From Eledone cirrhosa (Eukaryota), in assembly GCA_964016885.1 (NCBI GenBank), contig OZ024742.1, positions 225,246,001-225,310,000 on the forward strand: a DNA stretch of 64,000 nt. The letters are read 5' to 3'. Positions 47,956 to 50,323 of the stretch are shown piece after piece. How positions within the stretch are numbered: the stretch's first letter is position 1; each line of letters opens with the position of its first letter. A program made the translations under genes and the position numbers. The notes below the pieces were generated by a model. That model was given only the letters and a program-made list of their open reading frames with translations. It ran no database searches and was not told the DNA's origin.

Positions 47956-48018
47956 AATATATATAAATTATAAAATAAGAAGAAGTAATAGACAGATATA
48001 TACCTATTTTTTCTTCAA

Positions 48019-48113
48019 AGTCCCGACTGTACAGTTTCGCTGGTCAGTTTGCAACAATTGCACATTATAGATGTGTAATATTGTTGTGAGGCACACCAGC
48101 TTTTCAAGGAACT
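48019..48113 (-). ncRNA. Hammerhead with U3-A8 core (UUGAAAA)
   Basis: AGTTCC TTGAAAA GCTGGT...ACCAGC GAAA CTGTACAG TC GGGACT. Confidence 0.7.
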
Positions 48114-48144
48114 CCTCAGGGAAAGAACACTTTCCAGACACGTT

Positions 48145-48687
48145 CGTAGCAAGTGAGAAAATCTCAGAAGGCGGAGGGAGAAATTACCACGTGGTACACC
48201 GGTCAAGAAAGGGAACTGAATCTCTTGTAGCAAGTGAGAAAATCTCAGAAGGCGGAGGGAGAAATTACCACGTGATACACCGGTCAAGAAAGGGAACTGA
48301 ATCTCTTGTAGCAAGTGAGAAAATCTCAGAAGGCGGAGGGAGAAATTACCACGTGATACACCGGTCAAGAAAGGGAACTGAATCTCTTGTAGCAAGTGAG
48401 AAAATCTCAGAAGGCGGAGGGAGAAATTACCACGTGATACACCGGTCAAGAAAGGGAACTGAATCTCTTGTAGCAAGTGAGAAAATCTCAGAAGGCGGAG
48501 GGAGAAATTACCACGTGATACACCGGTCAAGAAAGGGAACTGAATCTCTTGTAGCAAGTGAGAAAATCTCAGAAGGCGGAGGGAGAAATTACCACGTGAT
48601 ACACCGGTCAAGAAAGGGAACTGAATCCCTTTGTAGCAAGTGAGAAAATATCTCAGAAGGCAGAGGGATAAATTACCACGTGATACA
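48145..48687. repeat. 81-bp minisatellite, ~6.7 near-identical copies
   Basis: Unit AAGTGAGAAAATCTCAGAAGGCGGAGGGAGAAATTACCACGTGATACACCGGTCAAGAAAGGGAACTGAATCTCTTGTAGC. Confidence 0.95.
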
Positions 48688-50323
48688 GGGGTTACAGGCA
48701 GGTAGTAAGGCGGACTGAAAGCGATTATAGTTTGCTTAAGAAGCAGTTACTATACTTTCGGGTTAACTCAACCGTAAGGGAGTTTGAGACAATATCATAA
48801 TGAGAGACACACATATAGATGTGTATACATACGTACACACGTATATATATATATATATTTTTTCACAAGCATGTGAGTGTGTGTGGTGTCGACCTTAACC
48901 AGTTATGCTCTATAACTACGAGAGACAAAATAATCGAAATAATTAAATTGACTCGATATCAGAGCTATACAACAAATTATAAAATAAGAAGAATAAACAC
49001 AGATATATACCTATTTTCCTTTGCCTGGTAGCTATGGTGATGGAAGCTGTATGGTAGACATGGATGTACAGAAAGTCTTCCTCTGTCTGTGAGTGAAAGA
49101 AACTGTATGGTAGACATGGATGCACACAAGTCTTCTTCTGTCTGGTAGCTATAGTGAAAGAAGCTTTATGGTAGATCTGTCTAAAAGAATTGAGGACAGG
49201 AATCTTGCTCTCCGGCCAAGCCCGTATCAACTTCATCAAGTTTCACTTGAGGAGGAAAGGTGGGGGTAGAGAGGGAGGTGCTGCCCTTTAGTGTGTTTTA
49301 TAAAAGATGGGTGAGGGCAGCGAGATTGGCTGAATGGGCCTGATCCGACTATGGTTTTCTAAGCAGGAGGAAGAAAACAGGGAGAGGGCACTTTCAATGC
49401 CCGTGAGGCAACAGAATAACCCAGGGTTCTCCCTGGAATTTACTTAAACTATAGTTTAAAATAATAGGGATAGATAACAATGATGAAATTTGTAATAAAT
49501 ATACATAACAATAGAAACTATAACAGTAACGACTGTCAACAAGGATGAAAAGCAAAGTTGACTTCGGCGGGATTTGAAACTATAGTTCTTCCCAAGGCGG
49601 CGAATTGGCAGAGTCGTTACAACGTCGGATAGAATGCTTTATGGTATAATTTCGGCTCTCTGCTCTCGGATTTCAAATCCCGCCGAAGTCAACTTTGCTT
49701 TTCATCCTTGTTGACAGTCGTTACTGTTATAGTTTCTATTGTTATGTATATTTATTACAAATTTCATCATTGTTATCTATCCCTATTATTTTCACTTCAG
49801 GGATGTCCCCTTTCTTTCACTCAGTGTAAACCTAACTCCGTTGCATTCTTTTGTCCTTGTATCGTCCCCTAATGTCTTGAGGCATTGTGGCCAATAAAAG
49901 AAATAATAATATTAATAATAATTGTTTCAACTTTTGGCACGAGGCCAGCAATTACTCAGTACTGGTACTTTATTTTATCGACCTCGTAAGAATGAAAGAC
50001 AAAGGTAACCTCGGCTGAATTTGAACGCCTGACAATAACACACAACAAAAGATGGCGACCTGAATAGATCTGTCTTTTCTCAGAGACTTTTCTTTCGTTT
50101 CTGCCACTGCCCACTCTCCTCTGTCTTTCTATTTCTTCTTTAATTTTTAATTCTATTTTCTGATGAAAGGCTAGCGTCCGAGACATTAAGACTCTTTTCC
50201 TACAATAACAACCGTAAAACTAATATATTTTTTCATTGTACTGTGTCGTTTGGTTTGTTATTTCCGTTTTCCTTTTGCATATATATATATAACATATATA
50301 TATACAATATTCTCATGTATATA

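Follow-up and report, generated by a model that had tools for sequence, protein, structure and literature searches.

A lineage of U3-A8 hammerhead retrozymes in Eledone cirrhosa and a Hydra-clade Penelope-like element as its candidate driver

A 64,000-nucleotide stretch of Eledone cirrhosa DNA (hereafter the window) contains an older and now inactive element that is very probably a non-autonomous Penelope-like retroelement (PLE), that is, a non-LTR retrozyme. We favor, with moderate confidence, a reading in which this retrozyme has a predicted ribozyme and circle and is copied in trans by a Hydra-clade PLE protein, and in which the 81-mer array inside the window copy is a local expansion of likely promoter DNA; the full mechanism set out below is held with marginally less assurance. 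The features on which this reading rests are collected in Table 1.

Table 1. Features of the retrozyme copy and of related elements in the window
Feature	Position in window	Strand	Basis or remark
Whole element, 1.05 monomers, family A non-autonomous PLE	47965..49020	-	BLAST to 20 genomic copies; terminal repeat 47965/48974
(TA)n short target, shared tail-to-tail with degraded autonomous PLE on + strand	47957..47964	.	Sequence; 36/40 family-A ends abut (TA)>=4
60-nt tail, cleavage site to inferred reverse-transcription start	47965..48024	-	
Type I hammerhead: U3-A8 core, extended stem II, palindromic stem III, GUC site	48019..48113	-	
CCUCA in stem II internal loop, 3' strand of predicted pseudoknot	48087..48091	-	
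UGAGG 5' of stem I, 5' strand of predicted pseudoknot	48114..48118	-	
81-bp minisatellite, 6.7 copies, five surplus identical units	48146..48687	.	TRF: period 81, 98%
Predicted bulged hairpin RCUC-UGA...UCA-(2-nt bulge)-GAGY, then GGUUAAGGUCGACAC	48907..48965	-	Just 3' of insertion end in RNA; same motif in Hydra PLE 5' UTR
5' redundant tail copy (more-than-unit-length insertion)	48974..49020	-	BLAST limits; terminal repeat
Array of family B (591-nt), 2.3 monomers, with an inverted 5' piece at 52796-52950; homology extends over whole monomer	51447..52950	-	
Hydra-clade PLE, candidate driver; two-frame ORF at 29644-27172; C3-G8 hammerhead with its tail at about 24200-24400; hairpin of an inverted 5' copy at 31306 (+)	24200..31450, limits approximate	-	

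Direct reading and a descriptor scan both identified the minus strand at 48019-48113 as a type I U3-A8 hammerhead, as a preliminary description of this DNA had proposed from its core, stem II, palindrome and GUC site. Stem I (AGUUCC/GGGACU) pairs 48113-48108 with 48024-48019; the core UUGAAAA, which contains U3 and A8, occupies 48107-48101, and is accompanied by stem II GCUGGU/ACCAGC, GAAA, the palindromic stem III ACUGUACAGU and the GUC site, with the cut predicted between 48025 and 48024. It was the sole U3-A8 match of the descriptor scan within the 64-kb window, a scan which misses the 591-nt family (family B), where the core has a bulged stem II. The minimum free energy fold of the window copy is the hammerhead (z -2.38; 1 of 200 shuffles equally good), its three stems being present and stem I open, and an Rfam scan of the window at the gathering score returned 0 matches, leaving the ribozyme undetected. 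The direct repeats of the element start at 47965 and 48974, a spacing of 1,009 nt, or 604 nt once five surplus 81-mers are subtracted, in agreement with the monomers of ~1010 and ~600 nt estimated previously. With its 5' end at 49020 and its 3' end at ~47965, the window copy amounts to a single unit plus 47 nt. Homologues were sought in 3.0 Gb of genome, in which the window spans C3:225,246,001-225,310,000; the window is dense in microsatellites, which dominated the output of a generic repeat finder.

Several other repeats lie nearby. A degraded RT and GIY-YIG PLE (~45650-47958, plus strand), which has a C3-G8 minimal hammerhead-like core near 47720-47750, stands tail-to-tail with the window element, and its family also adjoins two other copies of the lineage (L114 and L179); it was rejected as a parent, having a different ribozyme and tail and no hairpin. 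C3-G8 hammerhead-like repeats of other families were seen at 32817 and 42791 (both plus strand) and, as an inverted pair, at 51020-51220. An abundant SINE-like repeat occurs in tandem at 59358-59884 and 9722-10159 (193- and 240-nt periods) and interrupts several lineage copies as well.

Genome-wide, the U3-A8 pattern gave about 7,780 matches against 17 in a reversed control, a total slightly inflated by chance and satellite matches, and the 100 matches listed were all B-type; with family B removed, the pattern (A-like) gave 349 matches against 11. The ribozyme region of the window copy yielded 1,006 candidates, the best 40 of which scored at 87-100%, and family B yielded 905, with 40 of 40 scored copies 100% identical and many in tandem. 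Together these copies form a ladder of ~600-nt subfamilies, comprising A, A2, intermediates, a young B and an old C, with within-group identities of 93%, 94%, 82%, 99% and 74%, respectively, and 60-80% between groups. Identity over the ribozyme region ranges from 60 to 99% across subfamilies, which supports the earlier suggestion of an old lineage of ~600-nt U3-A8 elements. Over the whole monomer, family A (L010) aligned to family B with a score of 186.5, versus 30.1 +/- 4.1 (maximum 46) for 300 dinucleotide shuffles, and 400 of 587 aligned positions were identical; the relationship to the 591-nt unit is thus significant against shuffled controls, and the UUGANAA/GAAA/GUC arrangement, on which the preliminary description had staked its claim, was found in other copies.

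The counterpart pattern with a C3-G8 core matched 201 times (control, 4), and 27 of the 30 fetched C3-G8 loci (L178-L207) belong to one family, D. This sister to the U3-A8 lineage, with about 170-200 copies, appears to be a C3-G8 pseudoknotted retrozyme with a 300-nt tail. Colinear alignments scored 132 for A-C and 95 for C-D, against shuffle maxima of 43-47 for the series that includes A-B, and A-D was marginal (43.5 versus a shuffle maximum of 40). Judged from these alignments rather than from a tree, the core pair appears to have been swapped once within a homologous series.

Family B arrays reach up to 5 units of 591 nt, and the ribozyme runs on into a next unit in 40 of 74 cases in family B and in 8 of 48 in family A. 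The predicted fold of a family B circle, 62% paired, has an energy of -169.9 kcal/mol, versus -134.7 +/- 6.6 for 40 shuffles. For the element itself only repeat-derived open frames were found, with no Pfam family at cut-off and no LTR, PBS or PPT. Among the loci scanned for PLE motifs there was no autonomous element with a U3-A8 ribozyme; a search for one with a short stem II found none (35 matches versus 16 in the control, 9 of 30 fetched loci being dropped as chance), and neither did a search with a long stem II, in which all but one of 100 listed matches came from an unrelated 2-kb satellite on contig C2. That satellite (L219-L237, C2:259.1-259.6 Mb) consists of ~2-kb units with short internal repeats, and its pattern matches are due to chance.

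The manner of insertion is that of a PLE. The 3' ends lie at a fixed place beyond the cleavage site and abut (TA)n in 36 of 40 family A copies, 32 of 34 family B copies and 5 of 8 family C copies; for family D, where the script chose an internal TA run, ends placed by eye lay near +300 in TA in 16 of 21. The 5' ends are ragged through truncation and often carry an inverted piece. A tail, 5' truncation, partial tandem copies and inverted copies were all observed, and such insertion features are those described for PLEs in the accessible text of PMC8557442. Since the 3' end is internal to the unit, we infer that reverse transcription ran on a circle or on a multimer that had not been cut, and that linear monomers released by cleavage did not serve as template. 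A donor-like G|GUAU occurs in all four lineages about 22 nt past the cleavage site (48005-48000 in the window, minus strand) and is possibly the relic of a PLE intron; no acceptor conserved among the lineages was found for an intron beginning at this +22 site.

Just 3' of the insertion end, all lineages have the potential to form a bulged hairpin, RCUC-UGA...UCA-(UA/UU)-GAGY, with a GG..AAG.U.G.CAC-like run after it. That the window copy includes the hairpin is due solely to its exceeding one unit in length; the covariance-model match to the hairpin region covers 48873-48979. The hairpin lies at +85 in family B, which ends at +74-77, and at +60-64 in family A, whose ends cluster at +50-69. Pairing was retained in 93.5% of cells in 15 sequences, a level reached by 11 of 500 shuffles (slid controls, 23-46%); covariation was thin, with 4 cells changed on both sides and 17 of 500 shuffles as good. 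In only 7 of 11 local folds did the probability of the basal helix exceed 0.5; for the window-type hairpin, which preferred a shifted register, it was 0.04. As modeled here, the second RNA module of the lineage is this hairpin, rather than the 81-mer.

A Hydra-clade PLE in the same window was assigned by motifs: translations of 27172-29644 contain RWR, DKT and CNCRNKANC (CxCX5C). The accessible description of the clade in PMC8557442 names RWK-type and DKT motifs, a CxCX5C linker, a C-terminal GIY-YIG, a (TA)n target and a hammerhead, and the window PLE agrees with it. The family numbers 64,638 candidates, the best 150 of which scored at 96-100% identity, with open frames of up to 866 aa, and by these sequences is young, intact and abundant. 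Its own ribozyme, with a C3-G8 core, a long stem II and a 70-nt tail running into (TA)n, is unlike the U3-A8 ribozyme. Ten distinct 3' contexts were compared: four end at +69/70, one is interrupted, one is cut off, and four continue into ACUC-UGUA...UACA-UU-GAGU at +75-77, ~7 nt past the insertion end, followed by GGAUUGGACAC. The basal pairs of this hairpin have a predicted probability of 0.88-0.99. Under a motif definition that was relaxed after the Hydra sequence had been seen, the motif arose in 1 of 20,000 shuffles of the Hydra UTR and in 0 at the observed place. Across 1.54 Mb of fetched sequence the motif stood in 35 distinct contexts, of which 26 were retrozymes, 7 were Hydra-type elements and 2 were others.

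What the retrozyme and the Hydra pseudo-LTR have in common is the motif and its position. The covariance model R1, which finds C and D copies, did not find the Hydra hairpin at E values up to 10, MAFFT did not align it with the retrozyme hairpins, and the ribozyme and body of the retrozyme could not be aligned to the Hydra family examined. In the accessible portions of the relevant papers, Hydra PLEs are described as inserting in (TA)n (PMC8557442), and a PLE protein as starting reverse transcription internally at an RNA stem-loop, with a binding region that extends past the start and no need of ribozyme cleavage (PMC11167929). Taken as a sequence-based argument, this makes the Hydra-clade PLE the likely driver that copies the retrozyme in trans. 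The same retrozyme might instead be driven by one or more other (TA)n-targeting Penelope families, the Hydra hairpin match being convergence or chance. At least four further PLE families are found at (TA)n in the window and its loci, and the failure of model and alignment to recover the Hydra hairpin, together with the different ribozymes, would fit such a driver; nevertheless the Hydra motif sits 7 nt past the insertion end with a shuffle rate of 1 in 20,000, and the degraded PLE family beside the window element lacks the hairpin motif after its tail, so that we regard another driver as unlikely. If the Hydra-clade protein is the enzyme, the hairpin may be a case of RNA mimicry, in which four lineages that altered their core (C3-G8 to U3-A8), length and promoter kept one hairpin that copies the internal-start signal of that protein. 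We advance this tentatively, as a proposal slightly less likely than not; if true, it names the enzyme, the RNA signal and the DNA target for retrozyme mobilisation.

The ribozyme has been maintained across the lineage. The alignment of 32 representatives contains 17 invariant columns, which are partly imposed by the search pattern. Stem pairing held in 81.3% of cells, versus 76.6 +/- 0.7 for shuffles, none of 500 being as good, and slid controls reached 31-45%. Changes on both sides of a pair numbered 49, some of which (in stem I) come from shifts of alignment register; compensatory changes in stems I and II bear out the covariation between families noted in the preliminary description. Two further islands of conservation, UGAGG 5' of stem I and CCUCA in the internal loop of stem II, are predicted to form a pseudoknot. 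In a best-register test, this pairing was found in 22 of the 32 U3-A8 representatives (shuffled mean 7.8, maximum 14; shifted controls 6, 2, 2 and 0). In family D, CGAGU(UU)/(AA)ACUCG pairs in 25 of 27 copies, which are not independent, against a shuffled mean of 5.6 and maximum of 11; shifted controls gave 11, 2, 1 and 21, the last at shift 44. When strands were crossed between lineages, pairing fell to only 10% and 28%, and we predict on this basis that the pseudoknot UGAGG/CCUCA covaries between the U3-A8 lineage and its sister family D. Neither the pseudoknot nor the C3-G8 sister family, the Penelope insertion signature or the hairpin at the insertion start had been noticed in the preliminary description. 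According to the accessible text of PMC3088659, U3-A8 is a known active pair and a natural hammerhead variant, and about 40% of hammerheads contain a pseudoknot; U3-A8 is also described for Schistosoma PLE ribozymes in that of PMC4209133.

The persistence of core, stems and predicted pseudoknot, through compensatory changes, in lineages only 60-70% alike implies selection on the fold. It speaks against a reading in which the ribozyme is a passenger and mobility depends on linear multimer RNA that is never cut, with no role for cleavage or circles. In favor of that reading, hammerhead mutants are described as leaving in vitro insertion by a PLE protein unaffected (accessible text of PMC11167929), 8 of 9 Xenopus retrozyme dimers as uncleaved (that of bioRxiv 10.64898/2026.07.22.740005), and two copies on C28 share a deletion of GAAA and stem III. 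Set against the compensatory changes across lineages that are 60-70% alike, however, we consider a mere passenger quite unlikely and retain a functional ribozyme as part of the preferred reading.

As had been surmised, the 81-mer array arose by expansion of part of the unit: normal A and B copies have one 81-mer unit and a partial upstream copy (a ~45-nt direct repeat at ~81 nt spacing). Lineages C and D have one copy, lacking CCCTCCGCC, and the oldest subfamily lacks both the duplication and the CCCUCCGCC motif. Each unit bears TTGACC, CACGTG and CCCTCCGCC, which we take to be promoter-like DNA motifs. TTGAC at -92 to -100 and CACRT at -79 to -87 from the core are found in all four lineages, and in the same region of family D we found ACCAATCA (16/27), CACGT (18/27) and GGCGG (22/27). 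By the usual meanings of these motifs, the 81-mer region is likely to be promoter DNA. The homology of the 81-mer to the 591-nt unit was upheld (72.7% over 110 nt, E 4.6e-10), but it is not confined to the 81-mer: A-B homology spans the whole monomer at 61-63% overall, with 75-78% in the best 40-nt bin of the 81-mer.

The preliminary description had taken the 81-mer for a conserved RNA module, a view that these results do not sustain. As a structured RNA it was rejected: RNAalifold on 24 copies of the region gave -1.5 kcal/mol and 7 pairs in 237 columns, with no conserved fold showing covariation, and a single 81-mer folded no better than shuffles (z +0.66 and -0.29). A functional module of another kind, either a pyrimidine-rich and unstructured binding site for a protein or a switch that tunes cleavage through pairing of CCUC with the GAGG of the pseudoknot, might account for the raised A-B identity of that best bin and for the pairing of CCUC with GAGG by RNAalifold in 23-24 of 24 copies. 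Its four CCUC-GAGG pairs are, however, without compensatory change and there is no consensus fold; moreover C and D lack CCCUCCGCC, yet have TTGAC and CACRT at the same offsets, and family D has CCAAT and GGCGG in the same region. We therefore judge such a module very unlikely. A coding repeat (27 codons; a 243-aa open frame) was also rejected, Pfam matches being sub-threshold only and the units of sister arrays being 79-83 nt. That the array is an assembly artefact can hardly be credited: five of its units are perfectly identical, but four other loci have arrays too, of 1, 3, 8 and 10 surplus units, each with unit variants of its own.

Promoter DNA that expanded locally is the reading we retain. 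An exact pattern found 17 adjacent pairs of 81-mer units at 5 loci, with 0 in the control, and 174 single-motif matches at roughly 155 loci, so that arrays occur at 5 of roughly 155, exact patterns undercounting decayed arrays. Surplus units number 5 in the window, 1 at L002, 3 and 8 at the C28 loci and 10 at C19, from three independent origins; family B has 0 expanded loci. The capacity of the 81-mer to seed minisatellites, as earlier proposed, is thus real but rare, being seen at five loci and absent from the 591-nt family; so distributed, the array is a rare by-product that does not characterise the active element, and as a minisatellite it shows nothing beyond ordinary repeat instability. 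The expanded copies include two sister pairs, each on one chromosome, in opposite orientation and with unshared flanks: the window copy with L002 (C3:224.77 Mb), 0.52 Mb apart, and L139 with L144 (C28:107.03 and 109.79 Mb), 2.76 Mb apart, the latter being the pair with the common deletion of GAAA and stem III. This arrangement suggests local copying or ectopic conversion; an inversion between sister copies was unsupported by the flanks. Mouse L1 promoters contain monomer arrays, and the 81-mer array resembles these in the tandem duplication of a motif-rich upstream unit of a retroelement, but differs in that expansion is rare (5 loci) and absent from the active family. In a Hydra-like element of the window (19710-21330, plus strand; 37598-37876), a ~140-bp duplicated unit with TGACGT lies upstream of a hammerhead-like core CAGAAGA; it is possibly a second case of upstream unit duplication, and CAGAAGA a possible core variant.

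The cycle that we propose would begin with transcription of a tandem array, started at the motif cluster that lies 70-150 nt upstream of the ribozyme. The pseudoknotted hammerhead, aided by pairing of palindromic stem III between units, would cut this RNA to monomers, which could circularise. The Hydra protein would bind the bulged hairpin, nick (TA)n and initiate reverse transcription within the RNA, some 7-11 nt 5' of the hairpin. Unit-plus, tandem and inverted insertions would result when the template copied is a circle or a multimer left uncut. The 81-mer array would have arisen later, when the ~45-nt direct repeats that stem from an ancestral duplication inside the element slipped or exchanged unequally. 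In this one genome an intact, abundant PLE that may supply the enzyme occurs together with a young family of passengers, and the two have a 60-nt signal in common, so that the in vitro PLE assay described in the accessible text of PMC11167929 could address trans-mobilisation without a detour. In addition, the lineage offers, as a natural series, a single ribozyme with either core pair and with a predicted pseudoknot that covaries.

U3-A8 cores, pseudoknots and the link between retrozymes and Penelope are already published. The accessible text of bioRxiv 10.64898/2026.07.22.740005 treats retrozymes as PLE derivatives and states that the mobilisation mechanism of non-LTR retrozymes is open; in a search of the openly accessible literature we found no report of the present lineage or of a hairpin common to retrozymes and Hydra elements. 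The comparisons that follow are with known systems as described in the accessible text of the sources cited. Like metazoan non-LTR retrozymes (PMC7229834; bioRxiv 10.64898/2026.07.22.740005), the lineage consists of non-coding tandem and dispersed units with one type I hammerhead each, and shares with them a weak palindromic helix III, a GC content below 50% and a highly paired predicted circle (Cervera and de la Pena 2020, PMC7229834), as well as kinship with PLE pseudo-LTRs. It differs in its length of about 600 nt, versus 170-400 nt in invertebrate examples, in its U3-A8 core and long stem II with a predicted pseudoknot, and in its strict (TA)n target, fixed internal 3' end and hairpin common to the candidate driver.

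The minimal U3-A8 hammerheads of the Schistosoma Cercyon PLEs (PMC4209133) and natural U3-A8 variants (PMC3088659) have the same core covariation, with about 1,300 matches reported in one genome. Here U3-A8 is fixed in a full-size ribozyme with a predicted pseudoknot, in a non-autonomous lineage that has a homologous C3-G8 sister and a young amplifying family (the 40 identical scored copies of family B). As in pseudoknotted hammerheads (PMC3088659), the stem I side is predicted to pair with the stem II loop by 5-7 base pairs; the partner here is instead the internal loop of a 60-nt stem II, and the pseudoknot goes together with a U3-A8 core in an animal repeat. With Hydra-clade PLEs (PMC8557442) the lineage shares the (TA)n target, a hammerhead and tail, partial tandems and inverted 5' copies, and with PAc (PMC11167929) it would share reverse transcription that starts inside the RNA beside a stem-loop; unlike Hydra-clade PLEs, the retrozyme has no ORF, and only the hairpin motif and the geometry are common to both.
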